A stretch of 26,304 nt of DNA from a bacterium. Its GTDB lineage: Bacteria; SAR324; NAC60-12. Below are positions 1-24,778 of the stretch, piece by piece. The notes under the pieces were generated by a model. It was not told the origin of the DNA, made no database searches, and was given only the letters and a program-made list of their open reading frames with translations. The stretch covers positions 1 to 26,304 of the forward strand of contig CBDDTI010000023.1 of NCBI GenBank assembly GCA_965233585.1. Reading direction: 5' to 3'. The position numbers were made by a program, and so were the translations under genes. Each line of letters begins with the position of its first letter. Position 1 is the stretch's first letter.

Positions 1-1190
1 AACATGTTTCTTAACGTGTCGAAAGCCGTTTTCTGTGGCAGAACGTCAAGTGGTGTCAACGCGCAAATTCCGTGGCAGCCGTATGATGAAAATTGACGGA
101 AGCCTCGAACGAAACATCGATTTTGAGGTAGCAAATTTTGATGTTCATGAGAAAACTCGTTGGAAAACATCGATTCTGTAGCTACAAAGTGGAAAAATTT
201 GAGGATGTCTCGCACGAAATGCTCGTTTCGAGGCTCCAACATGTCTCGTCTCGTGGCATCGCCGTGTCTGTGGGGGAAGCTGCAAAACCTTTGCTTTTCG
301 AAGGGTTTCCAAACAGATTCCATCGCTTTGCGTGGCAGGCGTGGCTTTTCGTGACATTTTCACGTGTCTGCAAATGGTGTCGAAAGTCGTTTTGTGCGCC
401 TGTCACTTTTGCAAGGTTTTCAGAGGATGACTTTCATTTTTCGTGGCATGTGCAACACTTTGGACGTGTCCATGTTCATTTTGCATGGCAGGCGCAGCAC
501 TTTAGACGTGTCGTGTTGTGTGTTTTCGCGAATTGCATTGTCAGGGCTGCATCAAGCGGCGACAACGTGCAAATCGCACGGCAGGCATAGGACATCGTGA
601 GCCTGTCATTTTACATGGCAGGGGCAACATTTCCGACACTCTACACTTGACACACCACACTCTACACATTACACTAGACACTCCACACTTTACACTTCAC
701 ACTCCACACTCTACACTTTACACTCCACACTTTACACTTTAGACTTCAGACTCTACACTTTACACTCCACACTCTACACTCTGCACTCCACACTCTACAC
801 TCTACACTTTACACTCCAGACTTCACACTTTACTCTTTACACTCCAGACTCTCCACTTTACACTTTACACTCCACACTTTACATTTTACACTCCACACTT
901 TACACTTTACACTCTACACTTTACACTTTAAACTCCATACTTTACATTCCCCACTCTACACTTCACACTCTACACTTCACACTTTCCACCCCACACTTTA
1001 CACTCCACACTCCACAATCCCCACTCCACACACACTCCACACTGTGCACTCCACCCCCTTCCACATTCCACAGTGTCTACAGCGCACTGGTACGGTAACA
1101 GGGAAAAATTTACAAGACTGTTCAAATAATTTGTTTCACAAGAGTGTTTTACGTGATTGCATTCGGGTTCGTGGGCTGCATTTTGTTTTC
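1..1190 (+). repeat. Interspersed repeat rich in (C/A)(G/A)TGGCAGGCG motifs, followed by a heptamer minisatellite and a short unique tail; left end runs off the window
   Basis: Recurrent tggcag(g)cg-type motifs near 35, 72, 331, 486, 578 and 615, then an ACACT heptamer array and a tail ending ...ttcgggttcgtgggctgcattttgtttt. Architecture recalled from Symbiodiniaceae repeats (not verified). Overlapping ORFs have no recognisable domain. Confidence 0.6.
636..1070 (+). repeat. 7-bp minisatellite (TACACTT / TACACTC / CACACTC / CACACTT variants)
   Basis: Directly visible run of ACACT-core heptamers, e.g. tacactc cacactt tacactt. Confidence 0.95.
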
Positions 1191-1980: not shown

Positions 1981-2362
1981 AAATAGGAAACCTGTAGGAA
2001 GGGTTGCTTGTTGTGACTCACGGACGGCAGAGCGAATCCACTGATGGACCGACAGGTGGTTGGAGTTGTATTTTCTGGAGTGATTGCAATGGTTGCAGTT
2101 GTCACGTCACCACAACTGCTGGATGTAGTGTGGTGTAGTTGTAGGTGTAGTTGTGGCTGTAGTGGCGTTGTAGTTGTAAGTTGTAAGTTGTAGTTGTGAT
2201 GTAGTAAATTAGTGTAGTTGCAGTTGTAGTTGTGGTGTGGTGTAATTAGTTTGTAGTGTATTGTAGTTACAGTGCAGTATCGTACAGTGCTGCAATGTAG
2301 TGGTAGTTGCAGTTGTAGTGTAATGTAATATAATGTAATTAGTGTATTTGGTAGTTGTAGCT
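1981..2362 (-). repeat. Interspersed repeat fragment: ~140-bp complex segment attached to an (ACTACA/ACTAC)n-type low-complexity array
   Basis: 2125-2362 is a GTAGTT/GTAGT/GTAAT array (seen directly). The adjoining 1981-2124 segment (minus strand ...ccaaccacctgtcggtccatcagtggattcgctctgcc...) resembles a repeat terminus recalled from Symbiodiniaceae genomes (not verified). Confidence 0.6.
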
Positions 2363-2394
2363 ATTTGTTTGTTTGTTCGCTTAGCTGCAAGCAT

Positions 2395-3686
2395 AAAAAC
2401 AAAACTATTTTGCGAAATTTAATTTACTGATATTAAAAATTTAATAATTTTATAAAATATTTTTTATTTTTAATTTAATTATATGTTTTAAAATTTTTTT
2501 TTAATTTTTGAATTAATAAAAACAAAAAGGATGTAATTTTACATTTTTTTTAGGAAATAAATAATTAAATAAAAAATTAATGGTTATATTTTAATATATT
2601 TTGAAATATATTTATTTATCTAAAATATTATATTTATTATAAAAAAATAATACAAAATTATACAATAATTATATTAATTAGATAATAACTAATTTGAGAA
2701 TATATAGGAATCTATTTTTTTTGTTATTAATATGAAAATTATATATTATAAATATATTATAAATAAACGATAAAAATAATAATATTAATATATAATATTA
2801 TATATTTTTATATATTTAAATATTATAGTTTAAAATTTTATTGAAAATAATATAAATAATTATTTAAAAAAATAAAAATATTATGTTAAATTTTAAATAA
2901 AAATAATAATAAATAAATATAATATTTAAGAAATTTACCAAAAAAAAAATATATATATATATAAATATATAAATAAAAATATTATATATAAATAAATAAA
3001 ATATAAAAAGGAAAACATATATACACATATATATATATACAAAAAGGAAGGCATTTACACGCTTATATATACACAAACATAGACATAACGTAGTTATAAT
3101 TGAAATAGGAATTGAATCTTGAGTATTATATATTTTCGTTATTCTGATTGTTTTATATATATAAATATATATATATGTTTTATATGTAGATATTTTTATA
3201 TATAGATCCTTTTATATATAGATATTTGATATAAATATTCGTTTATATATAAAAATGTATATAATAATATATAATAAAAAGTTATATTCGTTTAATTTAG
3301 ATTAATAATAAAAATCGAATTATATACATATACTAAATAGGTAATTTAGGAATATATTTTTTATTAAATAAAAACCCCCATATAGGCAAACCTGTCATAA
3401 CAAAAAAACGATATAAAAATATATAAAATTATTAAAATTTTATTATTTTGACCATAATTAATTTTATAAATGTAGATGTAACCCTAGACCGTTCCTAGAA
3501 TTTCCCCCTATTGAAAAATATATAATATTATTGACATATGCGATTATTTCTTGATTATATTTTTTGGTGGAATATATAATGCATTTTTATTTATTTTTAT
3601 AAAAAAATCAGGAATTTTATTTAATATAGGTCAGGATAATAAACCTGTTTTTTTTCCTTTTTTCTTAAAATAATTATATATATGTT
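2395..3686. other. Extremely AT-rich low-complexity tract (degraded repeat or low-quality consensus)
   Basis: Almost exclusively A/T with (TA)n patches and an abrupt onset after the GTAGTT array; no periodic unit and no credible ORF. Confidence 0.8.
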
Positions 3687-4770
3687 ATCGCGATCGTGAC
3701 CCATACTTCGAAACCGAAGCTACGCTGACAGAAACCAAAATAAAATAATATATATACGTCGGGGAACCCAGATACCAAGCACAAAACCTCAGAGGAATTC
3801 TTTTATCCGGCCACCTATACTCACACACTGGCAAAGAAATTTTGTCTTTGAATATCCATATCTGACCAGAACAAAGACATACTGCTGACTTAAATGAGAA
3901 TCCCCAAAAATTACCCTGGTATGTTGGGATGTCAGGATCAACCAATGTGTAATTTAATTTCTTCAGCAAAATGAAATAAAAAATATTACATATTGTTTGC
4001 TATATAATATCCAAAAAAAATATATGACATGATGCGAATTCCAATCTTAACTGAAATTTGCCTGCAGGGAGACAAAAAGCTTGTGCAAAAATTATGGTCG
4101 ACTTGGCCGTCTGAATATAATGAGCTTTGGGGGTCTTGGAACCACGTTATTGAAGTGTGTGAACAACGCATTGCGCTTGAAAACAGGACATCCAAGAACC
4201 AAAGGCTGACCGAGTGGCGTACCAGAATGCGCCAGTGCGCAATTTTTTTGGCAATCTGCATCAAAATTACAATAAGGTAACGAGAAAACAAATATTCTTG
4301 CAGAATCATGGTACCGCATCTTTTTGATTTAATAGCGTTTCTTTATTATCCTGCCTTGTGTCCCCTCCTCTTTCTCTCATTTTGTTTTTTGAATATTTTT
4401 GTTTGTTTGATTGGAATTTTTTTCAATGTCGACCACTTGGCACCCTTGTATCTTGTTTCATTTTAAAATTTTTTTAATTTGTGTTTTTTTGTGGCTGAAA
4501 ACACCTACCTACGTTTTACATAAAAAACCATTCAAGTGGGACAAACGGTTGGGTAAAATTTTTTCTAGATGTTCATTAGTCTAATTAATTTTTTTATTGC
4601 TTTGTCTTTCCTTTTCTTTCTTTTGGCACTCTTTCAAAGTGTGCGTTGTTTCTGTCTTCTTTTTTCTTGAAGTTTTCCCAACTCTTGTTTCCGCAGGAGT
4701 TATTATGGAATGAACGACTGGATGCCTCAAATACCCGAAGGTATCGGACACGGCAGCCAACGGGACATGA

Positions 4771-7246
4771 TCAATTCATGTTTTTACGTACAGTGGCCCT
4801 GACCCGGGCCATGTGGTGAAGAACCGCTCTATTATAGGCATCACACCGACGTGTGGGCCAAGCAAGACGATTTTGCAATTCATTTTCAGGGACCTCAGGG
4901 CGGTCGGAAGACAACTGTTCGGCGGAGCAATGCCAGGAGAGATGCCCCCAGATACGTGGGATTTGCTCATCGCAAAAGAAACATTGTTCCCTTACTTCGT
5001 GTCCACGCATCTTATTATAGCATTCCGTGGATGCGCAGAACCAAGCATTACGGCCATTTGATGTCTATCACACGTGAAAGAGAACAACTTGCGGCATCGG
5101 AAACACGACTTTCCTCATACGGCACATCAAGCAAAGAAGGCCTATCATGGCCGCTCTGCTTTTTCGAAAGGGCAAATTGCACTCGCCGCCAACTTTCTTT
5201 CACCTTGTGCTCGGTGAATTTCACGACCCAAATCCACATGTGCAAACATCCATGGACCGCAAAATTTCCAGTTCAGCTCTCGCATGCGTGCGCAAATGAA
5301 ACAGTGCCAACCTCCAGGTCGTGGCATCCTTCGCCAAGGGGCACGAACTTGGCGCATGGTCCGAATGGAAGACATGGTGGCCCAAAACTCAGCATGATAC
5401 ATATGACTCACGAGCATGCCATGCCTGTCGAAACGAAGCATCTGTAACTGCGGCAATCGTTCAAACCAATCGCCCCATGTGGTGAGTGAAATGATTCTGG
5501 ACCTGTACAACGATATCCTGATATCGCGGGCAACCGGCAATTTCTGCAAACGGTGAGCGGCAAACACTGCTTCTTGCAAACGGTTCTCATCTCAAGTAAA
5601 GGGGAACAATAAAGACGATCATTTTCCGTAAAGTTAATACCTAAGACCCGAGTGGCCGGTCGGAGACACTCACAGAACTCTGCGTCATTGATCTCTTGCT
5701 TTGGTAGCGCAGTGCCGGCAATAAAACGCATTTTTGAACATTTCACGGAGACCCAAAGTGGCACTCCAGCTGCGCCATCTATGGATGCGAACATTGCGCA
5801 CGCTCAAAGCGCGATCATAAACATATGCACCCTGACACAAGTCTGGAATGGAAGACACATCAGGAAGAGGCCCAATGAGCAACCTGACAAGAGGCGGGGG
5901 TGCAATGGCATCAACTTGCGGCATGGAGGTCTGGACATGCTCCGGCGTTGGGTGCACAGCTTTCCCCAAGCAAAGCCATCGCACAGGATGACCCATATGA
6001 ACATCAAAATGTTAGCCCACTCATCTGGCAACCCTTGCAGTTGCATGTTTTCAATGGGCAAACCTGGGTGGACAAAATCAAAACATTTGGAGAAATCTAA
6101 AGAAGCAAGAACTTTTTGGTTTTCAAACGCTTTATTGAGGCCGAAACCCCTGGATTTCAGGCTCTATGGCACTGCTCGGAGACCCGAGACGCAATCCATT
6201 CCTGAACCCTGTGGGGTCCAAGATGAGGAAACTAACCGTAGAAAAATGCTTGCAACTGCAATAGGCCGCAAAGACCCTACAGTCCCACCGCCTTCCTTTC
6301 TTAAATGAACCTGACAAACCTGCAGCCATGCCTGTGGGACTGTTATAACTGAAACCAATGCAAACCAAATCATGGTAGTTGTCCCAAGCAACACGCGGGA
6401 GATGGCAAACTTCGCTACCGGACCAACCGTCAAACCGGGCCAGAGCGGCCTGATGGATAAGGGCAATCAGTTTGGGGTCCATCAAGCCAAGGCTTCCATT
6501 GTTCTAAATTCTGGGGTAAGTGTGGAACGAGAACATCACGTTTCCAAAGACGCTGCCAAAAGAACAAATAACAATCAAGGGTTTGCGTGATCGTGAGCAA
6601 GAATCTTCGAATCAGAGCGTACTGTTGGAGGTTTGCGAGGCTTCACCCACCGGTCACCTCTGAGCCCCCCGATCATGTCGTGGATGTGACGAAAAGAAAT
6701 GTTTTCACAGAGAGTAATACTTGCGCACAGAAACGCTGTTACACACAAACACTTTATTCAAGTTTACCCACAGAAAATTCACAAATACAAATGAAATTTC
6801 GAGGTGAAGTTAATCCAGAGAACTTGTAGCATTCAACTGTCAAGCAAGCAAAAACGCACTGGGCGTCACGCACGCAGCGATTCGGATCGTTCTGCAGAAA
6901 ATGTATCTCCTGTCCGCTGTTTTTGTTCAAAAACCACCTTTTCAAGCAAACAGGATGGAAACAGAGACGCTTATTCCCGCAAACATATAGAAGCTAAAGA
7001 AAAGAGAAAAGCTTTTGAACACAGAAACTCAGAGCTACAAATTTTTTCAAACTAACACTTTGAATGAGACAGAGGAAAATAAGAAAAACGTGTATTTTTT
7101 CGGAAAAAGCGGACGAAAATATTTTGTTTCTTGTGGCGACATGAATATTGCGGCGATTTAGAAACATCTGCCATCCGCAACAAGAACAATTTTTTTCCTT
7201 CGAGTGGAATGAAAACAGGGTCTAACGTTGTGTCCAAGAAAATTTG
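4771..7246 (-). pseudogene. Degenerate non-LTR retrotransposon (LINE-like) ORF2: RT domain, thumb and C-terminal CCHC knuckle, with several frameshifts (array unit 1 plus the native 3' end)
   Basis: Minus-strand motifs in canonical order across frames: DGWSGSEV..LP (region 0), PQAWLQVCQVHLRK..LRPIAVASIFLRLVSS (RT1-2), LASLDFSKCFDFVHP (RT3), SMPQVDAIAP (RT4, PQG changed to PQV), GAYVYDRAL (RT5, YxDD mutated, 5814-5825), WSATLGL (RT6), RVLGINF (RT7), then CFFCDEQIPRIWGHLSWHC (Cx2Cx9Hx4C) and a stop at 4771. Confidence 0.9.
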
Positions 7247-7487
7247 GTCTATCACACGTGAGAGAGAAGAACTTGCGCCATCGGAAACACGACTTTCCTC
7301 ATACGGCACATCAAGCAAAAAAGGCCTATCATGGCCGCTCTGCTTTTTCGAAAGGGCAAATTGTACTCGCCGCCAACTTTCTTTCACCTTGTGCTCGGTG
7401 AATTTCACGACCCAAATCCACATGTGCAAACACCCATGGATCGCAAAATTCCCAGTTCAGCTCTCGCATGCGTGCGCAAATGAAACA

Positions 7488-8796
7488 CTAGGGAGGCCCT
7501 TTTGAGCGAAGCTGGTTTTGAGAAGGTTTTCCAGACCCAGAATTGGGTCCGTCGGAGCAAGCAGTTTTGTAGATGATTTTTTAGCTTTTTTTAAAACCTC
7601 GTAAACAATGCTTTTAAAGCTCCAAGAGACGCGGTGAACGTAGGAGGTACGAGTGGCTAACGGACGTGGTGACGAACGTAAGGCGAACGAGTGAACGGAC
7701 GAGTGCACGTGTGAGCGAACGAGTGAACGGACGTGTGCGTACAAGTGGACGGACGTGTGCGCGTACGTGCGTGCGTTTGCACGTTCACTGGCCGCGCGCG
7801 CGCGCACGTACGAAAATAAGGTCGACTGGAGTCGACCTTATTTCTGTACGTGCAAAGCGCTACAATACTAAATCAATACTAAAGAGGCAGGGTCGTGCAA
7901 AAATAAGGTCGACTTGAGTCGACCTTATTTTTGCGTACGTGCGCGCGCGCGTGGCGAGTGACCGTGCAAACGCACGGACGTACGCTCACATTTTCGCTCG
8001 CACGTACGCTCACTCGTACATACATACGGTCGCACGTACGTTCACTCGCACGCATGTCGTTCACACACACGTTCATACCCCCGTTCATGTCACTCGTCAC
8101 TACACGTACGCTAGATAAAAATATTTTTACGAGACTTTAAAAAAAACTAAATGATTTTGTTTCTTGTTGTGGCAAGCGGGGTGCATATCGGTTGCTGCTT
8201 GAACCCACTTGAAGTTAGCTTCTTATTATTTCGTTGCGTCTGGTGGCTTGATTGTTTGCTGCTAAAAGAAGGCGCATCAGCCTTTTGCAGCCTTAGGTGA
8301 TTGCTTGAAGTGTTTCTTGCCGTTGAGGAGTTTGTGGGTTTTCGCGCAGGTGGTCGGCTTCCATTTGATTGATTGTATTGAATACTTTACTGCCCCTTGT
8401 CGGCCCCCCTTGCCCCTGTAGACTCCTACCGAAGTTTTTAGCCCAGAAAGAACATGAATCATGATCTTTTCAGTCAATCCCGTTATTAATTAATAGTATT
8501 AATTTAAAACGGGATGGAGTAGGAATCTGCTTAGGAAAATATGTGGCAAGGTGACGTATTGAAGGCTTTCTTACTCCGCCATCGTTTCGATATCGTATCA
8601 ATTACATTGGGTAATTGAATTAAAACATAGCACGGAGTAGTGGAGTAGCGCGGAGTAGCGAAGGATTGGTGAATGTTGCCTGGGTGGTGCTGCATCGCAA
8701 ATCGCCACATCTGATACCACATGTGCGCTTTCAGGTTCCATTTCTGGGGCCGGAAAGTCAAAAGAAATCAGGCTTCGCATGTGCGGGCCTCCTCTG
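7488..8796. mobile_element. Module A1: non-autonomous element with imperfect bipartite terminal inverted repeats
   Basis: Left end ctag-GGAGGCCC-ttttga-GCGAAGC; reverse complement of the right end caga-GGAGGCCC-gcacat-GCGAAGC. No recognisable ORF. Confidence 0.75.
7581..8150. mobile_element. Foldback MITE (570 bp) nested in A1, 8-bp TSD ATGATTTT
   Basis: ATGATTTT at 7573-7580 and 8151-8158; ~25-bp imperfect TIR ttagctttttttaaaacctcgtaaa / tttacgagactttaaaaaaaactaa; internal 52-bp inverted arms 7761-7812 and 7934-7985 (4 mismatches). Confidence 0.85.
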
Positions 8797-9121
8797 TTCC
8801 AACTCTATATGCTGGTTGCTTAAATAAACGCAGTTGTAATTTTTTGTTTGTTGCAGGGGTCGGCCTTTGGTGTGGATTTTGCGATTTTGCGGTGTCATTT
8901 TTGGTACCGCCAGACGGTCCCAAAAATGGGACCGTGAAAGTGCTTTTCTTTTGTTCTTTTACTAAGCTGCGCATGTGGTCCCAAAAATGGGACCGCCAGG
9001 CGGTCCCATTTTTGGGACCGTGTTTAGGTTCATGTTTTTCAAGTTTTTTGTATCAGGGTTGCAGAAGTGCAATGTTTTGGTTTCCTTGTAACTTTGTGGC
9101 TTATGGCGACCGGACGGGCAA
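8797..9121. other. Spacer B: non-coding segment with four GGTCCCA-N4-TGGGACC-type palindromes
   Basis: Copies at 8889-8910 (degenerate), 8915-8934, 8977-8994 and 9002-9019; the last two together form a perfect 21-bp-arm palindrome 8977-9019 centred on 8998. Confidence 0.85.
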
Positions 9122-10401
9122 CTAGGGAGGCCCTTTTGAGCGAAGCTGGTTTTGAGAAGGTTTTCCAGACCCAGAATTGGGTCCGTCGGAGCAAGCAGTT
9201 TTGTAGATGATTTTTTAGCTTTTTTTAAAGCCTCGTAAACAATGCTTTTAAAGCTCCGAAAGACGCGGTGAACGTAGGGGGTACGAGTGGCTAACGGACG
9301 TGGTGACGAACGTAAGGCGAACGAGTGAACGGACGAGTGCACGTGTGAGCGAACGAGTGAACGGACGTGTGCGTACAAGTGGACGGACGTGTGCGCGTAC
9401 GTGCGTGCGTTTGTACGTTCACTGGCCGCGCGCGCGCGCACGTACGAAAATCTGTACGTGCAAAGCGCTACAATACTAAATCAATACTAAAGAGGCAGGG
9501 TCGTGCAAAAATAAGGTCGACTCAAGTCGACCTTATTTTCGTACGTGCGCGCGCGCGTGGCGAGTGACCGTGCAAACGCACGGACGTACGCTCACATTTT
9601 CGCTCGCACGTACGCTCACTCGTACATACAGTCGCACGTACGTTCACTCGCACGCATGTCGTTCGCACACACGTTCATACCCCCGTTCATGTCACTCGTC
9701 ACTACACGTACGCTAGATAACAAAAATATTTTTACGAGACTTTAAAAAAAGCTAAATGATTTTGTTTCTTGTTGTGGCAAGCGGAGTGCATATCGGTTGC
9801 TGCTTGAACCCACTTGAAGTTAGCTTCTTATTATTTCGTTGCGTCTGGTGGCTTGATTGTTTGCTGCTAAAATAAGGCGCATCAGCCTTTTGCAGCCTTA
9901 GGTGATTGCTTGAAGTGTTTCTTGCCGTTGAGGAGTTTGTGGGTTTTCGCGCAGGTGGCCGGCTTCCATTTGATTGATTGTATTGAATACTTTACTGCCC
10001 CTTGTCGGCCCCCCTTGCCCCTCTAGACTCCTACCGAAGTTTTCAGCCCAGAAAGAACATGAATCATGATCTTTTCAGTCAATCCCGTTATTAATTAATA
10101 GTATTAATTTAAAACGGGATGGAGTAGGAATCTGCTTAGGAAAATATGTGGCAAGGTGACGTATTGAAGGCTTTCTTACTCCGCCATCGTTTCGATATCG
10201 TGTCAATTACATTGGGTAATTGAATTAAAACATAGCACGGAGTAGCGGAGTAGCGCGGAGTAGCGAAGGATTGGTGAATGTTGCCTGGGTGGTGCTGCAT
10301 CGCAAATCGCCACATCTGATACCACATGTGCGCTTTCAGGTTCCATTTCTGGGGCCGGAAAGTCAAGTGAAATCAGGCTTCGCATGTGCGGGCCTCCTCT
10401 G
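9122..10401. mobile_element. Module A2: second direct copy of A (1280 bp)
   Basis: Collinear with 7488-8796 and with the same termini; net 29 bp shorter, with all the indels I found lying inside the nested MITE, plus scattered substitutions. Confidence 0.8.
9215..9755. mobile_element. Foldback MITE (541 bp) nested in A2, 8-bp TSD ATGATTTT
   Basis: ATGATTTT at 9207-9214 and 9756-9763; TIR ttagctttttttaaagcctcgtaaa vs tttacgagactttaaaaaaagctaa (24/25 match). Confidence 0.87.
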
Positions 10402-12352
10402 CAGTGCCAGCCTCCAGGTCGTGGCATTCTTCGCCAAGGGGCACGAACTTGGCGCATGGTCCGAATGGAAGACATGGTGGCCCAACCTCAGCATGATACA
10501 TATGACTCACGAGCATGCCATGCCTGTCGACACGAAGCATCTGTAACTGCGGCAATCGTTCACACCAAGCGCCCCATGTGGCGAGTTAAATGATTCTGGG
10601 CCTGTACAACGACATCCTGATATCGCGGGCAACCGGCAATTTCTGCAAACGGTGAGCGGCAAACACTGCTTCTTGCAAACGGTTCTCATCTCAAGTAAAG
10701 GGGAATAATAAAGACATTTTCCTCAAAGTCAATACCTAAGACCCGAGTGGCCGGTCGGAGACACTCACAGAACTCTGCGTCATTGATTTCCTGCTTTCGT
10801 AGCGCAGTGCCGGCAATAAAACGCATTTTTGAACATTTCACAGAGACCCAAAGTGGCACGCCAGCTGCGCCATCTATGGATGCGAACATTGCGCACGCTC
10901 AAAGCGCGATCATAATCGTATGCACCCTGATGCAAGTCTGGAATGGAAGACACATCATGAAGAGGCCCAATGAGCAACCTGACAAGAGCCGGGGTGCAAT
11001 GGCATCAACTTGCGGCATGTAGGTCTGGACATGCTCCGGCGTTGGGTGCACAGCTTTCCCCAAGCACAGCCATCGCACATGATGACCCCATACGAACATC
11101 AAAATGTTAGCCCACTCATCTGGCAACCCTTGCAGTTGCATGTTTTCAATGGGCAAACTGGGTGGACAAAATGAAAACATTTGGAGAAATCTAAAGAAGC
11201 AAGAACTTTTTGGTTTTCAAACGCTTTATTGAGTTGCCTCCATGCCGAAACCCCGGATTTCAGGCCTCTATGGCACTGCTCGGAGACCCGAGATGCATTC
11301 CATTCCTGAACCCTGTGGGGTCCAAGATGAGGAAACTAACCGTAGAAAAATGCTTGCAACTGCAATAGGCCGCAAAGACCCTAAAGTCCCACCTTGTTTC
11401 TTTCTTAAATGAACCTGACGTGCCTGCAGCCATGCCTGTTGGATTGTTATAACTGAGACCAATGCAAAACCAAATCACGGTAGTCATCCCAAGCAACAAG
11501 CGGGAGATGGCAAACTTCGCTACCGGACCAACTGTCACATCCGGCCAGAGCGGCCTGATGGATGAAGGCAATCAGTTTGGGGTCCATCCAGCCAAGGCTT
11601 CCATTGTTTTAAATTCTGGGGTAAGTGTGGAACGAGAACATCACGTTTCCAAAGACGCTGCCAAAAGAACAAATAACAATCAAGGGTGTGCGTGATCGTG
11701 GAGCAAGAATCTTCGAATCAGAGCGTGCTGTTGGAGGTTTGTGAGGCTTCACCTACCGGTCAACTCTGTGCCCCCCGATCATGTCATGGATGTGACGAAA
11801 AGAAACGTTATTCACAGAGAGTAATACTTGTGCACAGAAACGCTGTTACACACAAACACTTTATTCAAGTTTACCCACAGAAAATTCACACATAAAAATG
11901 AAATTTCCGGGTGAAGTTAATCCAGAGAACTTGTAGCATTCAACTGTCAAGCAAGCAAAAATGCACTGGGCGTCACGAACGCAGCGATTCGGATCATTCT
12001 GCAGAAAATGTATCTCCTGTCTGCTGTTTTTGTTTCAAAAACCACCTTTTCAAGCAAACAGGATGGAAACAGAGACGCTTATTCCCGCAAACATAGAAGC
12101 TAAAGAAAAGAGAAAAGCTTTTGAACACAGAAACTCAGAGCTACAAAGTTTTTCAAACTAACACTTTGAATGAGACAGAGGAAAATAAGAAAAACGTGTA
12201 TTTTTTTGGCAAAAGCGGACGAAAATATTTTGTTTCTTGTGGTAACATGAATATTGCGGCGATTTAGAAACATCTGCCATCGGCAACAAGAACAATTTTT
12301 TTCCTTCGAGTGGAATGAAAACAGGGTCTAACATTGTGTCCAAGAAAATTTG

Positions 12353-14497
12353 GTCTATCACACGTGAGAGAGAAGAACTTGCGCCATCGGAAACACGACT
12401 TTCCTCATACGGCACATCAAGCAAAAAAGGCCTATCATGGCCGCTCTGCTTTTTCGAAAGGGCAAATTGCACTCGCCGCCAACTTTCTTTCACCTTGTGC
12501 TCGGTGAATTTCATGACCCAAATCCACATCTGCAAACACCCATGGATCGCAAAATTCCCAGTTCAGCTCTCGCATGCGTGCGCAAATGAAACAGTGCCAG
12601 CCTCCAGGTCGTGGCATTCTTCGCCAAGGGGCACGAACTTGGCGCATGGTCCGAATGGAAGACATGGTGGCCCAAACTCAGCATGATACATATGACTCAC
12701 GAGCATGCCATGCCTTTCGACACGAAGCATCTGTAACTGCGGCAATCGTTCACACCAAGCGCCCCATGTGGCGTGTGAAATGATTCTGGGCCTGTACAAC
12801 GACATCCTGATATCGCGGGCAACCGGCAATTTCTGCAAACGGTGAGCGGCAAACACTTCTTCTTGCAAACGGTTCTCATCTCAAGTAAAGGGGAATAATA
12901 AAGACATTTTCCTCAAAGTCAATACCTAAGACCCGAGTGGCCGGTCGGAGACACTCACATAACTCTGCGTCATTGATTTCCTGCTTTCGTAGCGCAGTGC
13001 CGGCAATAAAACGCATTTTTGAACATTTCACAGAGACCCAAAGTGGCACGCCAGCTGCGCCATCTATGGATGCGAACATTGCGCACGCTCAAAGCGCGAT
13101 CATAATCGTATGCACCCTGACGCAAGTCTGGAATGGAAGACACATCATGAAGAGGCCCAATGAGCAACCTGACAAGAGCCGGGGTGCAATGGCATCAACT
13201 TGCGGCATGTAGGTCTGGACATGCTCCGGCGTTGGGTGCACAGCTTTCCCCAAGCACAGCCATCGCACATGATGACCCCATACGAACATCAAAATGTTAG
13301 CCCACTGATCTGGCAACCCTTGCAGTTTTATGTTTTCAATAGGCAAACTGGGTGGACAAAATGAAAACATTTGGAGAAATCTAAAGAAGCAAGAACTTTT
13401 TGGTTTTCAAACGCTTTATTGAGTTGCCTCCATGCCGAAACCCCGGATTTCAGGCCTCTATGGCACTGCTCGGAGACCCGAGATGCATTCCATTCCTGAA
13501 CCCTGTGGGGTCCAAGATGAGGAAACTAACCGTAGAAAAATGCTTGCAACTGCAATAAATAGGCCGCAAAGACCCTACAGTCCCACCGTGTTTCTTTCTT
13601 AAATGAACCTGACGTGCCTGCAGCCATGCCTGTGGGATTGTTATAACTGAGACCAATGCAAAACCAAATCACGGTAGTCATCCCAAGCAACAAGCGGGAG
13701 ATGGCAAACTTCGCTACCGGACCAACTGTCACATCCGGCCAGAGCGGCCTGATGGATGAAGGCAATCAGTTTGGGGTCCATCCAGCCAAGGCTTCCATTG
13801 TTTTAAATTCTGGGGTAAGTGTGGAACGAGAACATCACGTTTCCAAAGACGCTGCCAAAAGAACAAATAACAATCAAGGGTGTGCGTGATCGTGGAGCAA
13901 GAATCTTCGAATCAGAGCGTGCTGTTGGAGGTTTGTGAGGCTTCACCTACCGGTCACCTCTGTGCCCCCCGATCATGTCATGGATGTGACGAAAAGAAAC
14001 GTTATTCACAGAGAGTAATACTTGTGCAGAATGCACATACAAATGAAATTTCCGGGTGAAGTTAATCCAGAGAACTTGTAGCATTCAACTGTCAAGCAAG
14101 CAAAAATGCACTGGGCGTCACGAACGCAGCGATTCGGATCATTCTGCAGAAAATGTATCTCCTGTCTGCTGTTTTTGTTTCAAAAACCACCTTTTCAAGC
14201 AAACAGGATGGAAACAGAGACGCTTATTCCCGCAAACATAGAAGCTAAAGAAAAGAGAAAAGCTTTTGAACACAGAAACTCAGAGCTACAAATTTTTTCA
14301 AACTAACACTTTGAATGAGACAGAGGAAAATAAGAAAAACGTGTATTTTTTTGGCAAAAGGGGACGAAAATATTTTGTTTCTTGTGGTAACATGAATATT
14401 GCGGCGATTTAGAAACATCTGCCATCGTCAACAAGAACAATTTTTTTCCTTCGAGTGGAATGAAAACAGGGTCTAACATTGTGTCCAAGAAAATTTG
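12353..14497 (-). pseudogene. Array unit 3: degenerate LINE RT fragment (net 49-bp deletion near 14028; 4-bp insertion near 13555)
   Basis: Same motifs; period 2145 bp. Confidence 0.88.
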
Positions 14498-16686
14498 GTC
14501 TATCACACGTGAGAGAGAAGAACTTGCGCCATCGGAAACACGACTTTCCTCATACGGCACATCAAGCAAAAAAGGCCTATCATGGCCGCTCTGCTTTTTC
14601 GAAAGGGCAAATTGCACTCGCCGCCAACTTTCTTTCACCTTGTGCTCGGTGCATTTCATGACCCAAATCCACATCTGCAAACACCCATGGATCGCAAAAT
14701 TCCCAGTTCAGCTCTCGCATGCCTGCGCAAATGAAACAGTGCCAGCCTCCAGGTCGTGGCATTCTTCGCCAAGGGGCACGAACTTGGCGCATGGTCCGAA
14801 TGGAAGACATGGTGGCCCAAACTCAGCATGATACATATGACTCACGAGCATGCCATGCCTTTCGACACGAAGCATCTGTAACTGCGGCAATCGTTCACAC
14901 CAAGCGCCCCATGTGGCGAGTGAAATGATTCTGGGCCTGTACAACGACATCCTGATATCGCGGGCAACCGGCAATTTCTGCAAACGGTGAGCGGCAAACA
15001 CTGCTTCTTGCAAACGGTTCTCATCTCAAGTAAAGGGGAATAATAAAGACATTTTCCTCAAAGTCAATACCTAAGACCCGAGTGGCCGGTCGGAGACACT
15101 CACAGAACTCTGCGTCATTGATTTCCTGCTTTCGTAGCGCAGTGCCGGCAATAAAACACATTTTTGAACATTTCACAGAGACCCAAAGTGGCACGCCAGC
15201 TGCGCCATCTATGGATGCGAACATTGCGCACGCTCAAAGCGCGATCATAATCGTATGCACCCTGACGCAAGTCTGGAATGGAAGACACATCATGAAGAGG
15301 CCCAATGAGCAACCTGACAAGAGCCGGGGTGCAATGGCATCAACTTGCGGCATGTAGGTCTGGACATGCTCCGGCGTTGGGTGCACAGCTTTCCCCAAGC
15401 ACAGCCATCGCACATGATGACCCCATACGAACATCAAAATGTTAGCCCACTGATCTGGCAACCCTTGCAGTTGCATGTTTTCAATAGGCAAACTGGGTGG
15501 ACAAAATGAAAACATTTGGAGAAATCTAAAGAAGCAAGAACTTTTTGGTTTTCAAACGCTTTATTGAGTTGCCTCCATGCCGAAACCCCGGATTTCAGGC
15601 CTCTATGGCACTGCTCGGAGACCCGAGATGCATTCCATTCCTGAACCCTGTGGGGTCCAAGATGAGGAAACTAACCGTAGAAAAATGCTTGCAACTGCAA
15701 TAGGCCGCAAAGACCCTACAGTCCCACCTTGTTTCTTTCTTAAATGAACCTGACGTGCCTGCAGCCATGCCTGTGGGATTGTTATAACTGAGACCAATGC
15801 AAAACCAAATCACGGTAGTCACCCCAAGCAACAAGCGGGAGATGGCAAACTTCGCTACCGGACCAACTGTCACATCCGGCCAGAGCGGCCTGATGGATGA
15901 AGGCAATCAGTTTGGGGTCCATCCAGCCAAGGCTTCCATTGTTTTAAATTCTGGGGTAAGTGTGGAACGAGAACATCACGTTTCCAAAGACGCTGCCAAA
16001 AGAACAAATAACAATCAAGGGTGTGCGTGATCGTGGAGCAAGAATCTTCGAATCAGAGCGTGCTGTTGGAGGTTTGTGAGGCTTCACCTACCGGTCACCT
16101 CTGTGCCCCCCGATCATGTCGTGGATGTGACGAAAAGAAACGTTATTCACAGAGAGTAATACTTGTGCACAGAAACGCTGTTACACACAAACACTTTATT
16201 CAAGTTTACCCACAGAAAATTCACACATACAAATGAAATTTCCGGGTGAAGTTAATCCAGAGAACTTGTAGCATTCAACTGTCAAGCAAGCAAAAATGCA
16301 CTGGGCGTCACGAACGCAGCAATTCGGATCATTCTGCAGAAAATGTATCTCCTGTCCGCTGTTTTTGTTTCAAAAACCACCTTTTCAAGCAAACAGGATG
16401 GAAACAGAGACGCTTATTCCCGCAAACATAGAAGCTAAAGAAAAGAGAAAAGCTTTTGAACACAGAACTCAGAGCTACAAATTTTTTCAAACTAACACTT
16501 TGAATAAGACAGAGGAAAATAAGAAAAACGTGTATTTTTTCGGCAAAAGCGGACGAAAATATTTTGTTTCTTGTGGTAACATGAATATTGCGGCGATTTA
16601 GAAACATCTGCCATCGGCAACAAGAACAATTTTTTTCCTTCGAGTGGAATGAAAACAGGGTCTAACGTTGTGTCCAAGAAAATTTG
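14498..16686 (-). pseudogene. Array unit 4: degenerate LINE RT fragment
   Basis: Same motifs, e.g. CHRGLKSGVSAWRQLNKAFENQKVLASLDFSKCF read on the minus strand at about 15511-15610. Confidence 0.88.
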
Positions 16687-18875
16687 GTCTATCACACGTG
16701 AGAGAGAAGAACTTGCGCCATCGGAAACACGACTTTCCTCATACGGCACATCAAGCAAAAAAGGCCTATCATGGCCGCTCTGCTTTTTCGAAAGGGCAAA
16801 TTGCACTCGCCGCCAACTTTCTTTCACCTTGTGCTCGGTGAATTTCATGACCCAAATCCACATCTGCAAACACCCATGGATCGCAAAATTCCCAGTTCAG
16901 CTCTCGCATGCGTGCGCAAATGAAACAGTGCCAGCCTCCAGGTCGTGGCATTCTTCGCCAAGGGGCACGAACTTGTCGCATGGTCCGAATGAAAGACATG
17001 GTGGCCAAAACTTAGCATGATACATATGACTTACGAGCATGCCATGCCTGTCGACACGAAGCATCTGTAACTGCGGCAATCGTTTACACCAAGCGCCTTA
17101 TGTGGCGAGTGAAATAATTCCGGGCCTGTACAACGACATCCTGATATCGCGGGCAACCGGCAATTTCTGCAAACGGTAAGCGGCAAACACTGCTTCTTGC
17201 AAACGGTTCTCATCTCAAGTAAAGGGGAACAATAAAGACATTTTCCTCAAAGTCAATACCTAAGACCCGAGTGGCCGGTCGGAGACACTCACAGAACTCT
17301 GCGTCATTGATTTCCTGCTTTCGTAGCGCAGTGCCGGCAATAAAACGCATTTTTGAACATTTCACAGAGACCCAAAGTGGCACGCCAGCTGCGCCATCTA
17401 TGGATGCAAACATTGCGCACGCTCAAAGCGCGATCATAATCGTATGCACCCTGACGCAAGTCTGGAATGGAAGACACATCATGAAGAGGCCCAATGAGCA
17501 ACCTGACAAGAGCCGGGGTGCAATGGCATCAACTTGCGGCATGGAGGTCTGGACATGCTCCGGCGTTGGGTGCACAGCTTTCCCCAAGCACAGCCATCGC
17601 ACATGATGACCCCATACGAACATCAAAATGTTAGCCCACTCATCTGGCAACCCTTGCAGTTGCATGTTTTCAATAGGCAAACTGGGTGGACAAAATAAAA
17701 ACATTTGGAGAAATCTAAAGAAGCAAGAACTTTTTGGTTTTCAAACGCTTTATTGAGTTGCCTCCATGCCGAAACCCCGGATTTCAGGCCTCTATGGCGC
17801 TGCTCGGAGACCCGAGATGCATTCCATTCCTGAACCCTGTGGGGTCCAAGATGAGGAAACTAAAGTAGAAAAATGCTTGCAACTGCAATAGGCCGCAAAG
17901 ACCCTACAGTCCCACCTTGTTTCTTTCTTAAATGAACCTGACGTGCCTGCAGCCATGCCTGTGGGATTGTTATAACTGAGACCAATGCAAAACCAAATCA
18001 CGGTAGTCACCCCAAGCAACAAGCGGGAGATGGCAAACTTCGCTACCGGACCAACTGTCACATCCGGCCAGAGCGGCCTGATGGATGAAGGCAATCAGTT
18101 TGGGGTCCATCCAGCCAAGGCTTCCATTGTTTTAAATTCTGGGGTAAGTGTGGAACGAGGTCATCACGTTTCCAAAGACGCTGCCAAAAGAACAAATAAC
18201 AGTCAAGGGTGTGCGTGATCGTGGAGCAAGAATCTTCGAATCAGAGCGTGCTGTTGGAGGTTTGTGAGGCTTCACCTACCGGTCACCTCTGTGCCCCCCG
18301 ATCATGTCGTGGATGTGACGAAAAGAAACGTTATTCACAGAGAGTAATGCTTGTGCACAGAAACGCTGTTACACACAAACACTTTATTCAAGTTTACCCA
18401 CAGAAAATTCACACATACAAATGAAATTTCTGGGTGAAGTTAACCCAGAGAACTTGTAGCATTCAACTGTCAAGCAAGCAAAAACGCACTGGGCGTCACG
18501 AACGCAGCGATTCGGATCATTCTGCAGAAAATGTATCTCCTGTCCGCTGTTTTTGTTTCAAAAACCACCTTTTAAAGCAAACAGGATGGAAACAGAGACG
18601 CTTATTCCCGCAAACATAGAAGCTAAAGAAAAGAGAAAAGCTTTTGAACACAGAAACTCAGAGCTACAAATTTTTTCAAACTAACACTTTGAATGAGACA
18701 GAGGAAAATAAGAAAAACGTGTATTTTTTCGGCAAAAGCGGACGAAAATATTTTGTTTCTTGTGGCAACATGAATATTGCGGCGATTTAGAAACATCTGC
18801 CATCCGCAACAAAAACAATTTTTTTCCTTCGAATGGAATGAAAACAGGGTCTAACATTGTGTCCAAGAAAATTTG
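16687..18875 (-). pseudogene. Array unit 5: degenerate LINE RT fragment
   Basis: Same motifs (SMPQVDAIAP, GAYDYDRAL, RVLGIDF). Confidence 0.88.
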
Positions 18876-21063
18876 ATCTATCACACGTGAGAGAGAAGAA
18901 CTTGCGCCATCGGAAACACGACTTTCCTCATACGGCACATCAAGCAAAAAAGGCCTATCATGGCCGCTCTGCTTTTTCGAAAGGGCAAATTGCACTCGCC
19001 GCCAACTTTCTTTCACCTTGTGCTCGGTAAATTTCACGACCCAAATCCACATGTGCAAACACCCATGGATCGCAAAATTCCCAGTTCAGCTCTCGCATGC
19101 GTGCGCAAATGAAACAGTGCCAACCTCCAGGTCGTGGCATTCTTCGCCAAGGGGCACGAACTTGTCGCATGGTCCGAATGGAAGACATGGTGGCCAAAAC
19201 TTAGCATGATACATATGACTCACGAGCATGCCATGCCTGTCGACACGAAGCATCTGTAACTGCGGCAATCGTTTACACCAAGCGCCTTATGTGGCGAGTG
19301 AAATAATTCCGGGCCTGTACAACGACATCCTGATATCGCGGGCAACCGGCAATTTCTGCAAACGGTAAGCGGCAAACACTGCTTCTTGCAAACGGTTCTC
19401 ATCTCAAGTAAAGGGGAACAATAAAGACATTTTCCTCAAAGTCAATACCTAAGACCCGAGTGGCCGGTCGGAGACTCTCACAGAACTCTGCGTCATTGAT
19501 TTCCTGCTTTCGTAGCGCAGTGCCGGCAATAAAACGCATTTTTGAACATTTCACAGAGACCCAAAGTGGCACGCCAGCTGCGCCATCTATGGATGCGAAC
19601 ATTGCGCACGCTCAAAGCGCGATCATAATCGTATGCACCCTGACGCAAGTCTGGAACGGAAGACACATCATGAAGAGGCCCAATGAGCAACCTAACAAGA
19701 GCCGGGGTGCAATGGCATCAACTTGCGGCATGTAGGTCTGGACATGCTCCGGCGTTGGGTGCACAGCTTTCCCCAAGCATAGCCATCGCACATGATGACC
19801 CCATACGAACATCAAATGTTAGCCCACTCATCTGGCAACCCTTGCAGTTGCATGTTTTCAATGGGCAAACTGGGTGGACAAAATGAAAACATTTGGAGAA
19901 ATCTAAAGAAGCAAGAACTTTTTGGTTTTCAAACGCTTTATTGAGTTGCCTCCATGCCGAAACCCCGGATTTCAGGCCTCTATGGCACTGCTTGGAGACC
20001 CGAGATCCATTCCATTCCTGAACCCTGTGGGGTCCAAGATGAGGAAACTAACCGTAGAAAAATGCTTGCAACTGCAATTGGCCGCAAAGACCCTACAGTC
20101 CCACCGTGTTTCTTTCTTAAATGAACCTGACGTGCCTGCAGCCATGCCTGTGGGATTGTTATAACTGAGACCAATGCAAAACCAAATCACGGTAGTCATC
20201 CCAAGCAACAAGCGGGAGATGGCAAACTTCGCTACCGGACCAACTGTCACATCCGGCCAGAGCGGCCTGATGGATGAAGGCAATCAGTTTGGGGTCCATC
20301 CAGCCAAGGCTTCCATTGTTTTAAATTCTGGGGTAAGTGTGAAACGAGGTCATCACGTTTCCAAAGACGCTGCCAAAAGAACAAATAACAATCAAGGGTG
20401 TGCGTGATCGTGGAGCAAGAATCTTCGAATCAGAGCGTGCTGTTGGAGGTTTGTGAGGCTTCACCTACCGGTCACCTCTGTGCCCCCCGATCATGTCGTG
20501 GATGTGACGAAAAGAAACGTTATTCACAGAGAGTAATGCTTGTGCACAGAAACGCTGTTATACACAAACACTTTATTCAAGTTTACCCACAGAAAATTCA
20601 CACATACAAATGAAATTTCCGGGTGAAGTTAATCCAGAGAACTTGTAGCATTCAACTGTCAAGCAAGCAAAAACGCACTGGGCGTCACGAACGCAGCGAT
20701 TCGGATCGTTCTGCAGAAAATATATCTCCTGTCCGCTGTTTTTGTTTCAAAAACCACCTTTTCAAGCAAACAGGATGGAAACAGAGACGCTTATTCCCGC
20801 AAACATAGAAGCTAAAGAAAAGAGAAAAGCTTTTAGACACAGAAACATAGAGCTACAATTTTTTCAAACTAACACTTTGAATGAGACAGAGAAAAATAAA
20901 AAAAGTGTATTTTTCGGCAAAAGCGGACGAAAATATTTTGTTTCTTGTAGCGACATGAATATTACGGCGATTTAGAAACATCTGCCATTGGCAACAAGAA
21001 CAATTTTTTTCCTTCGAGTGGAATGAAAACAGGGTCTAACATTGTATCCAAGAAAATTTGGTC
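18876..21063 (-). pseudogene. Array unit 6 (terminal): degenerate LINE RT fragment
   Basis: Same motifs; ends aaatttggtc and then diverges into gtgacattaaag. Confidence 0.88.
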
Positions 21064-21699
21064 GTGACATTAAAGAATCTTCCCATCCGTTCCACATCTT
21101 TTCCAAATGATGCCAAAAAAGAAAAATTACTCAAGCATATTTTCCTATAGCAAGCTGAATTAATTCTGGCTAAAAAGCACAGAGGTTTTTTCTCCTGAAG
21201 AAAATACTAGAAATTTTTGTCGTTTTTTGGGACGCTTCCCATCCTTTCCATCTTTCCAAATGATGCAAAAATACAAAAATCTCACATTATTTAACCCTTT
21301 ATGGCTGACATGTACAGACAGGTGTCATCTAATCTCTTTCCAAAGTATCCCAAAGAGCACAGAAAAGTCACAAACAATTGACCGAGTGTTATTTTTCTTC
21401 AGAGTCCCTTCTGTAAAATTCATCTTTTTCAGTCTGGGATCAAACGTCGTCTTTTTTTTTTAAATCCCAAACCTTAAGTGGAGCAGATAAACACCGCATA
21501 TCCACTTCTTGCAAGAAGCAGCAAAAGAAAACAAAGACGGCAAAGGGAAAGCGGGAAATAGGGAAGAAATTATCCAAATACGCTGGTTGGAAGCAGGGGA
21601 AGAATTTGCATCCAAATCCGCGGTCAGCCAAACAAAGAGCAACAAATAAATACAGTCAATAAAACCATGTCCCCTTAGACAGCACCAGCTCTTTTCAGG

Positions 21700-23745: not shown

Positions 23746-24778
23746 ATGTGGTTAGGGTTGGTGGTGGTTGTGGTGTTGGTGTTGGTGGTAGTGTTTCTGG
23801 TGTTGTTGGTGTGGTTGGGTTTGTTGGTGGTGTTGGTGTTGTTGGTCGTGTTGTTGGTGTTGGTATTGTTTGTGTTCCTGTTGTTGTCGTTGTTGTTGTT
23901 GCTGTTGTTGCTGCTGCTGATGGTGTTGTTGTTGTTGTTGCTGTTGCTGCTGATGGTGTTGTTGTTGTTGTGTGTTGTTGTGTTGTTGTGTGTTGTTGTG
24001 TGTTGTTGTGTGTTGTTGTGTGTTGTTGTGTGTTCTTGTGTGTGTTGTGGTGTGTTGTGGTGTGTTGTGGTGTGTTGTTGTGTGTTGTTTGTGTTGTTGT
24101 GTGTGTTGTTGTGTGTTGTTGTGTGTTGTTGTGTGTTGTTGTGTTGTTGTGTTGTTGTGTGTTGCGTGTGTTGTTGTGTCTTGTTGTGTGTTGTGGTGTG
24201 TTGTTGTGTGTTGTGTGTGTTGTGTGTGTTGTGTGTGTTGTGTGTGTTGTGTGTGCGTGTGTGTTGCGTGTGTTGTGTGTGTTGTGAGTGTTGCGTGTGT
24301 TGTGTGTGTTGTGTGTGTGTGTTGTGTGTGTTGTTGTGTGTTGTTGTGTGTTGTTGTTGTTATTGTTGTCATTGTCGTTGTAGTTGTTGTGGTTGTTGTG
24401 GTTGTTGTGGTTGTTGTGTGTTGTTGTGTGTTGTGGTGTGTTGTTGTGCGTTGTGGTGTGTTGTTGTGTGTTGTGTGTGTTGTGTGTGTGTGTTGTGTGT
24501 GTTGTGTGTGCGTGTGTGTTGTGTGTGTGTGTGTTGTGTGTGTTGCGTGTGTTGCGTGTGTTGTGTGTGTTGTGTGTGTTGTATGTGTGTTGTGTGTGTG
24601 CTGTGTGTGTTGTGTGTTGTGTGTGTTGTGTGTTTTGTGTGTTTTGTGTGTTTTGTGTGTTGTGTGTTGTGCGTTGTGCGTTGTGCGTTGTGTGTTGGTG
24701 TTGTTGTTGTTGGTGTTGTTGTTGTCGTCGTTGTTGTTGTTGTTGCTGTTGGTGTTGTTGTTGTTGGTGTTGGTGTTA
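23746..24778 (+). repeat. Compound GT-rich microsatellite (GTT, GTGTT, GTGTGTT, GGT units)
   Basis: About 1 kb of almost only G and T; it explains the stop-free V/C/L and T/H/Q ORFs in several frames. Confidence 0.96.

Follow-up and report, generated by a model that had tools for sequence, protein, structure and literature searches.

An A-B-A insertion in a macrosatellite, most likely of coral origin, and the array-forming family of transposon-like modules to which it belongs

Related systems and the present locus

The bacterial composite transposons Tn9, Tn10 and Tn5 consist of complete modules that encode transposase and bracket a captured middle segment, with the outer ends used in transposition and a target duplication outside only. 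Here we describe an insertion of comparable outline, arranged A-B-A, in a stretch of DNA of 26,304 nucleotides (hereafter the window) that is the entire contig C23 (CBDDTI010000023.1) of a genome bin of 747 contigs and 12.0 Mb, deposited as a bacterium (GCA_965233585.1). As in Tn9, Tn10 and Tn5, two complete modules (the A copies) bracket a middle segment (B), and the duplication is found only at the outer ends; unlike in those elements, the A modules, which are array sisters, encode no transposase, and what lies between them is not captured cargo but a repeat partner that stays the same.

Other described systems share further features with this locus. In Xenopus, miDNA4, and also Xstir, are Tc1/mariner-type MITEs (short for miniature inverted-repeat transposable elements) with satellite repeats, and in the account of PMC12628747 the transposon is thought to spread and seed the satellite. 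Like miDNA4, Xstir and the clam element DTC84, as portrayed in the literature, the family described here is a non-autonomous, TA-targeting element tied to a tandem repeat that is also found as arrays. The repeats of miDNA4 and DTC84, by contrast, are presented as lying inside one pair of termini, while here the repeat unit includes the whole of A with both termini, so the array holds many nested pairs of usable ends. The heterochromatic Bari1 cluster of Drosophila melanogaster is a head-to-tail array of a Tc1-like element for which, according to PMC8834629, no comparable case has been described. The present family resembles Bari1 as a probable Tc1/mariner-type element in a long head-to-tail array, but Bari1 copies, as depicted in that literature, are of autonomous size, abut directly and are without their first 2 nt, whereas the A modules are non-coding, have both termini complete and are separated by one to three copies of B, and pieces of the array are dispersed with TA duplications.

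Two further parallels concern how a pair of elements may behave. McGurk and Barbash (2018; PMC5932611) put forward tandem dimers of transposable elements, arising by double insertion, as seeds of arrays via unequal exchange. The present locus likewise offers a tandem transposon dimer as a substrate for array expansion; in the dimers as outlined there, however, only the target duplication lies between the copies, and here there is a 325-bp spacer without TA flanks and the dimer itself appears to transpose. In maize, alternative transposition of Ac/Ds pairs the termini of two neighbouring elements and moves the DNA between them (PMC4270019). Pairing of termini from two separate neighbouring elements is the feature in common with such macrotransposition; Ac/Ds, as characterised in that source, differs in being a hAT element with 8-bp duplications, in having been shown genetically, and in carrying ordinary genome between the termini. 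We found no report of this coral repeat in the literature, the search extending over open-access text, with repeat libraries such as Repbase and Dfam outside its scope. What is new here is a satellite made of a whole MITE plus a spacer, whose multi-unit pieces carry the duplication of the family, a combination of features of known systems.

The insertion, its modules and their target site

The host of the insertion is a tandem array of about seven non-coding units of 2189 bp, a macrosatellite that extends approximately from 5060 to 21140 (no strand assigned) and whose second unit is interrupted. Repeat families D5-D20 recur in it at a spacing of 2141-2194 bp, which becomes 5095-5107 bp where the insertion lies between. 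All five sister units (5302, 12592, 14737, 16926 and 19115) have an empty site, AAACAGTG, and read ...AAATGAAACAGTGCC..., and the occupied unit reads GAAACA|CTAGGG...CCTCTG|CAGTGCC. The CA on both sides, at 7486-7487 and 10402-10403 (both on the + strand), is therefore an exact 2-bp duplication, and the insert is 7488-10401, 2914 bp. Self-comparison of the sequence gives a single long direct repeat, 7487-8796 against 9121-10401, and the inner junctions read CCTCTG|TT after the first A and AA|CTAGGG before the second. The well-aligned inner 2189-bp units are 94-99% identical, and the macrosatellite occurs at low depth in other coral runs. In two organisms the site in sister units reads GAAACTCTGCC, not GAAACAGTGCC (2 contigs and 21 raw reads; joint 7486/10405); this variant has the same length as the empty site and is probably a plain AG>TC difference. 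The TCTG within it equals the last four bases of A.

The first module, A1 (7488-8796, + strand), is non-autonomous and of the long form, 1309 bp, with the ends 5'-CTAGGGAGGCCC... and ...GGGCCTCCTCTG-3'; the second, A2 (9122-10401, + strand), is its direct repeat, of 1280 bp, and the short form of A has 741 bp. In the inverted register the two termini of A match at 17 of 28 positions, including the blocks GGAGGCCC and GCGAAGC, a match equalled by 6 of 100,000 shuffles (p = 6e-5). The same two ends delimit a solo copy of A in contig C307 as well as the metagenome copies considered below. An earlier note on this DNA had proposed an insertion into a site left empty in the sister units, a duplicated CA at the outermost ends only, with TT and AA inside, and inverted termini for each A module; comparison with the five sister units, reading of the junctions and the terminal match bear out all of these.

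Both A copies contain a nested element, N. Outside it, A1 and A2 are identical at 730 of 739 positions and differ by 9 substitutions and several indels (a BLAST value of 96% for the pair includes gap columns), and in a tree of 40 full-length A copies they form one clade with 100/100 support. Since they share N and pair in the tree, A1 and A2 are copies of one N-bearing module, not independent insertions. As to variation within the family, 943 raw reads of X24 join the last base of A to an internal position (10401 to 10177) and 95 more do so from the end of A1 (8796 to 10177), which implies an abundant A variant with its last 225 bp (10177-10401) tandemly repeated.

Between A1 and A2 lies B (8797-9121, + strand), a 325-bp spacer with a 43-nt palindrome at 8977-9019, which is the monomer of A's satellite partner and is found between A copies in arrays. 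One such array takes up the whole of C195 (41 kb), with 30 A left ends and 31 right ends, between which B occurs in one or two copies, apparently in three once; most units of C195 are nearly identical to one another. Another fills C24 (12 kb), with 7 left ends, 6 right ends and one to three copies of B between them. Raw-read depth in X24 is 10^3-10^4 on A and B as against ~3-25 on the flanking 2.19-kb unit; per strand, B stands at ~3,100-6,100 and the flanks at ~1-15. These depths mark A-B as a satellite-like repeat of high copy number, in which B is the constant partner of A, not cargo: in C195, C24, C23 and the 78 metagenome loci, only B or a B remnant was found between A copies. Run X1 has zero depth on the 2.19-kb unit, and its word share of 0.58 reflects the repeat family, not this locus.

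A scan of metagenome contigs with the first 25 nt of A gave 79 loci, of which 78 were tallied after L109, which overlaps L108, had been dropped. They contain 79 A left ends, 36 adjoining the end of B and 43 adjoining unrelated, mutually different DNA. In 39 of these 43 the flank ends in TA (AT, CA, TG and GA occur once each), with TA making up 0.041 of dinucleotides in these loci (binomial P ~8e-50). Right ends were found 19 times: 15 adjoin the start of B (one of them degenerate), three adjoin TA and one, nested in another A, adjoins CA, that is, three of the four non-B right flanks start with TA. Both sides can be read in L058, a complete element of 1439 bp arranged TA|A-57 bp of B-A|TA, whose second A is without its first 55 nt. 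Given the 39 of 43 TA flanks and the TA on both sides of L058, the family makes 2-bp duplications at TA, and the CA of the window is an exception or off-target site. A 2-bp duplication at TA is the signature of the Tc1/mariner superfamily, whose integration chemistry PMC7827188 describes.

These dispersed copies also indicate what is inserted. TA-flanked left ends that are readable through the whole of A are followed by B in four of four cases (L052, L058, L074, L082); right ends that are then followed by TA have B or a B remnant before the A in three of three (L039, L058, L091), L039 and L091 ending ...B-A|TA; and none of the nine complete A copies in metagenome loci is a TA-flanked solo copy. 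Because a solo insertion cannot gain B later, pieces of A plus B must be what inserts, and B travels with A. At L059:4001-4320 one A sits inside another, inserted at position 176 the other way round and flanked by CA, a further non-TA site. Departures from TA are recorded for Sleeping Beauty, in which 28,794 of 2,018,489 integration sites are non-TA and have a downstream consensus, CAGTTGAA, that matches the transposon end, in the figures given by PMC5801840; the non-TA consensus presented in PMC7987939 has a strong CA. The target in the window, CAGTGCC, starts like A's own end, CAGAGG (CAGAGGAGG).

Besides insertions, the family shows junctions from which an A is missing. Where B follows B, the junction reads AA-CTG-TT, at the place where B-A-B reads AA|CTAGGG...CCTCTG|TT; there are 24 of these B-CTG-B junctions in C195, 8 in C24 and 716 raw reads with them in X24. 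Five metagenome loci start with TA|CTG|B (L042, L061, L069, L085, L087), two end with B|CTG|TA (L069, L096) and one with B|CTG|TC (L049), and L069, which lies in a TA-rich tract, reads TA|CTG-B-A-B-CTG|TA as a whole. CTG is the last 3 nt of A, and it is exactly CTG that stands wherever an expected A is missing. The transposases of Sleeping Beauty and mariner nick 3 nt inside the element and leave footprints equal to the 3-nt overhangs, as set out in PMC7827188. CTG is the footprint expected of Tc1/mariner-type excision, a circumstantial argument that rests on separate loci rather than on a before/after pair.

Mechanism and competing explanations

The best reading of the insertion is that A-B-A moved as one unit, because multi-module pieces bounded by outermost A ends recur (L058, L039 and L091, with TA-flanked A running into B in four loci). 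We consider it probable that the non-autonomous A belongs with the cut-and-paste elements of Tc1/mariner (IS630-Tc1-mariner) type, and that a transposase of this type used the outermost ends of a two-unit array segment, seeding satellite arrays at new loci. Every A in an (A-B)n array would offer a left and a right end, and a transposase acting in trans could bring together one A's left end and the right end of another A farther along, thereby moving a multi-unit piece. At the present locus an A-B-A piece would have been cut at its outermost ends and integrated into an unrelated 2.19-kb macrosatellite unit at a non-canonical CA. The donor would have been a homogenised array whose units already had N, and this would be why both A copies carry it; such a donor is plausible given how little the units of C195 differ among themselves. 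Once in place, the pair of direct A copies may grow into a new array by unequal exchange, so that transposition would spread the satellite, and single A modules may also be excised, leaving the 3-nt CTG. It is tempting to go further and to see here a natural 'sandwich' transposon: a coral satellite of complete Tc1/mariner-type MITEs plus spacer that would still be a transposase substrate, with segments of one, two or more units cut out (CTG being left), pasted at TA and regrown into arrays. This fuller proposal we put forward only tentatively.

Several observations weigh against transposition by the outermost A ends. At the target site, the duplication in the window is CA, not TA, and microhomology used in end joining would explain its 2 bp equally well. 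In C307 the flanks of the solo A are unequal, CA and CG, and an empty paralogue of these flanks was not found in the assembly. Within arrays the dinucleotides beside A are AA and TT rather than TA, which does not account for the first A-B unit. Every footprint is CTG and none is CTA, and the 32 array junctions probably go back to a single event that was amplified, so that the independent cases number ~8-9. A bias to CTG might arise because the overhangs, CTA and the complement of CTG, would pair except at one strand's 3'-terminal base, and this base may be trimmed and refilled. Many metagenome contigs end ~120 nt into A, with few copies followable, and the contigs may be chimeric. Neither unit|A junction is bridged by any record among the matches listed for four runs, and the insertion is therefore supported by this assembly only. 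Terminal likeness, moreover, cannot fix the superfamily, as a family M with termini like those of A (described below) duplicates 7 bp.

The search for a transposase also counts against this reading. An autonomous partner between the same terminal inverted repeats, which the earlier note had suggested looking for, was not found for A in the assembly, with its host DNA of ~7-9 Mb. DDE_3 gave 11 matches there, and on the seven contigs checked (7 of the 11 matches) no A-like terminus lies within 4 kb of one; scanning these seven contigs for A-like ends with TA gave two weak 14-mers with 3 mismatches, in C374. The 38 open reading frames (ORFs) beside 3'-truncated or divergent A copies have no Pfam match. 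Searches of the assembly with PF01359 (mariner) and PF03184 (pogo) gave no match and are uninformative, the control genomes being silent too. A match of the 3' 20-mer of A to an Amaricoccus chromosome is put down to chance, with one match seen and ~1 expected in 596 Gb of contigs.

The rival that survives best is end-joining capture, in which an excised linear piece, or a broken circle derived from (A-B)n, would have been ligated into a break in the macrosatellite, the CA being microhomology. On this account the site need not be the family's TA, a length of two bases lies within the microhomology range, array fragments should be plentiful at an A and B depth of 10^3-10^4, and the unequal flanks of the C307 copy would be of the same kind. 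Yet the insert begins and ends, to the base, at A termini, and the dinucleotide is present twice rather than simply being shared; the family, moreover, integrates with a constant 2-bp TA (39/43), and CA and TG are the commonest exceptions elsewhere too (L072, L077, L059, C307). We regard end-joining capture as unlikely on balance.

A true composite of the Tn9 style would have arisen from two independent A insertions that bracketed ordinary DNA (B), the trio then becoming mobile and the arrays forming later. The inner flanks of B are TT and AA rather than TA, however, and the common N makes A1 and A2 copies of one module; neither the assembly nor the 78 metagenome loci contain an A-X-A with cargo other than B, and no unique B-like locus was found in the assembly. 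We therefore think this origin improbable, although it would match the A-B-A architecture with its duplication outside only, would agree with the ability of A to stand alone (C307), and would account for the source of the first A-B-A. The earlier note had inferred a composite transposon, and part of its proposal stands, namely a discrete non-autonomous A with inverted termini of its own, A-B-A as one unit (as the best reading) and the 2-bp duplication; its cargo of the Tn9 type does not, as B is never replaced, varied cargo is absent from the assembly and the 78 loci, and the modules encode nothing. It had also reasoned that an A found always as A-B-A or (AB)n would tell against a composite, a state that the arrays nearly reach, but dispersed copies carry duplications and one A, in C307, is solo.

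An origin by rolling-circle replication has some points of contact with the data, and we give it very little credence. The piece would run from the left end of A to the right end of the second A, produced either by reading on beyond the first terminator, as in Helitrons or IS91, or as a concatemer of a circular A+B in the style of Bari1. The insert amounts to 1.8 units with a period of 1634 bp; the minus strand of A terminates in CTAG, with T next to it in each of the three contexts; and a rolling-circle origin has been proposed for the Bari1 tandem arrays (in the discussions of PMC8834629 and PMC5932611). Against these stand the 2-bp duplication and the TA target of the family, the lack of a 5'-TC terminus and of an A|T insertion site such as a Helitron would have, and the inverted termini and 3-nt footprints, which point to cut-and-paste. 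Identification of the insert as a Helitron or Helentron was rejected, with the duplication present, the target TA and only the minus-strand CTAG end followed by T in agreement.

It is still less probable that the A-B-A is an artefact of assembly, built from high-copy repeat reads at a site that holds a solo A or a longer array. The ~1 kb between N1 and N2 and the 646 bp at the right end are indeed high-copy, and no bridging record from another run is present among the matches listed. The two modules can be told apart, however, by 9 substitutions and several indels, and the flanking unit is taken up again in phase at each; long reads are also suggested by the 41-kb array that this assembly resolves, whose 1.4-kb units are almost identical. 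Least likely of all, to the point that we dismiss it, is the element similar to a long terminal repeat (LTR) retrotransposon or a terminal-repeat retrotransposon in miniature (TRIM) that the earlier note had listed as an alternative, with A1 and A2 as LTRs, B as the internal region and N in both through LTR regeneration from one template: it would suit direct, nearly identical flanking copies with a common nested insertion, but is contradicted by termini of CT...TG, not TG...CA, by a duplication of 2 bp, not 4-6 bp, by a B that starts TTCCAAC with no TGG-type primer-binding site beside A1, by arrays that include A-B-B and A-B-B-B units, and by the excision footprints.

Other identities were considered for the modules and rejected. 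A CACTA/Mirage-type element (5' CACTAG with flanking CA) is at odds with the metagenome flanks, which are TA, not CA, and although A has hAT-like ends (TAGGG / CAGAG), there is no 8-bp duplication. Placing the limits at AGGG...CCT, with a duplicated CT, fails because dispersed copies always read TA|CTAGGG. Nor is B an independent MITE with CTG...CTG ends, since these ends agree at only 7 of 13 positions and show no similarity to the termini of A.

Nested elements, host DNA and significance

The nested element of A1, N1 (7581-8150, + strand), is a 570-bp inverted-repeat element (TTAGC...CTAA) flanked by an 8-bp duplication, ATGATTTT, at 7573-7580 and 8151-8158; in A2 the same site is occupied by N2 (9215-9755, + strand), a 541-bp copy of this element, and ATGATTTT stands at 9207-9214 and again at 9756-9763. 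N1 and N2 are identical at 529 of 538 positions and are separated by 4 indel events. Positions 94-660 of A1 are absent from all other copies of A, array copies among them, and the joint without N (7572 to 8151, 8 letters fitting either side) is present in 1768 raw reads of X24, where depth over N is ~10-85 (both strands summed) as against thousands over A and B. N is palindrome-rich, low-copy in the reads from corals, and hAT-like by duplication length only. In run X15 a contig passes into N exactly at 7581 from a different flank, and N is therefore a mobile family of its own.

Two further families in the assembly resemble A in part. The first, M, is a foldback-like MITE of 755-857 bp with inverted repeats of 68-163 bp (C37:1267-2123, C358:19709-20463 and C628:12625-13397) and 7-bp duplications (TTTTAAC, ATTATAG); over its first 17 nt it is similar to A's right end, with agreement at 13 of 14 positions (BLAST E = 0.6). 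The second look-alike family starts CACAGGGAGCCCTCACATCC (C205, C374, C461). A terminal motif is in this way common to families whose duplications differ in length.

Although the bin is deposited as bacterial, it is mostly not so, and C23 is eukaryotic DNA of the host, with coral the most likely host. Dense long ORFs of prokaryote-like character are limited to 17 contigs, 3.27 Mb of the bin, and frames of at least 150 codons cover less than half of the length in 677 of the 747 contigs (7.44 of 12.0 Mb), including C23. Sequence words from the region 7488-10401 were found in 20 public runs from 10 studies; 'coral metagenome' is the label on 14 of 24 rows among the matches listed, these being runs that share words of the region. 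The flanking 2.19-kb unit is also found in contigs from two organisms, for one of which raw Hi-C reads contain it as well. On these grounds we assign the window to a eukaryotic host. The marker-based contamination figure for the bin is only 2.09%, although most contigs look non-bacterial.

Rfam searches (at gathering thresholds) and tRNA scans of the window gave no match, and the ORF lists for the window and for one 2189-bp host unit contain no gene-like frame; the handful of frames, 100-160 aa in length, that lie partly in A or B (7457-7807, 8721-9125 and 8962-9441) do not have the look of genes. Elsewhere in the window, 636-1031 is a tandem repeat of 7/21 nt, (ACACTCT)n, positions 2000-4000 have 20-24% G+C and are rich in A/T palindromes, and 23757-24777 is a 1-kb GT-rich microsatellite block (TGTTGT / GTGTTGTGT units) with a G+C skew of up to 0.69.

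On the practical side, several Mb of host DNA sit inside a species-representative bacterial genome bin. For the biology of the repeat, the family touches on two open questions, namely the way in which satellite DNA reaches new places in the chromosomes and the way in which transposons become satellites. Most documented cases are either MITEs with repeats inside one pair of termini or, in Bari1, a single array of a Tc1-like element. In the present family, a high-copy array with a complete element in its unit, dispersed multi-unit pieces with the target duplication of the family and single-module footprints are all seen in the same sequences. Reef corals are noted for pervasive tandem duplication (in the context treated by PMC10236652), and in them the pairing of ends from different units of an array becomes a testable mechanism. 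If the 'sandwich' reading is true, transposase-driven spreading of a satellite would here have been caught with the signatures of both insertion and excision.

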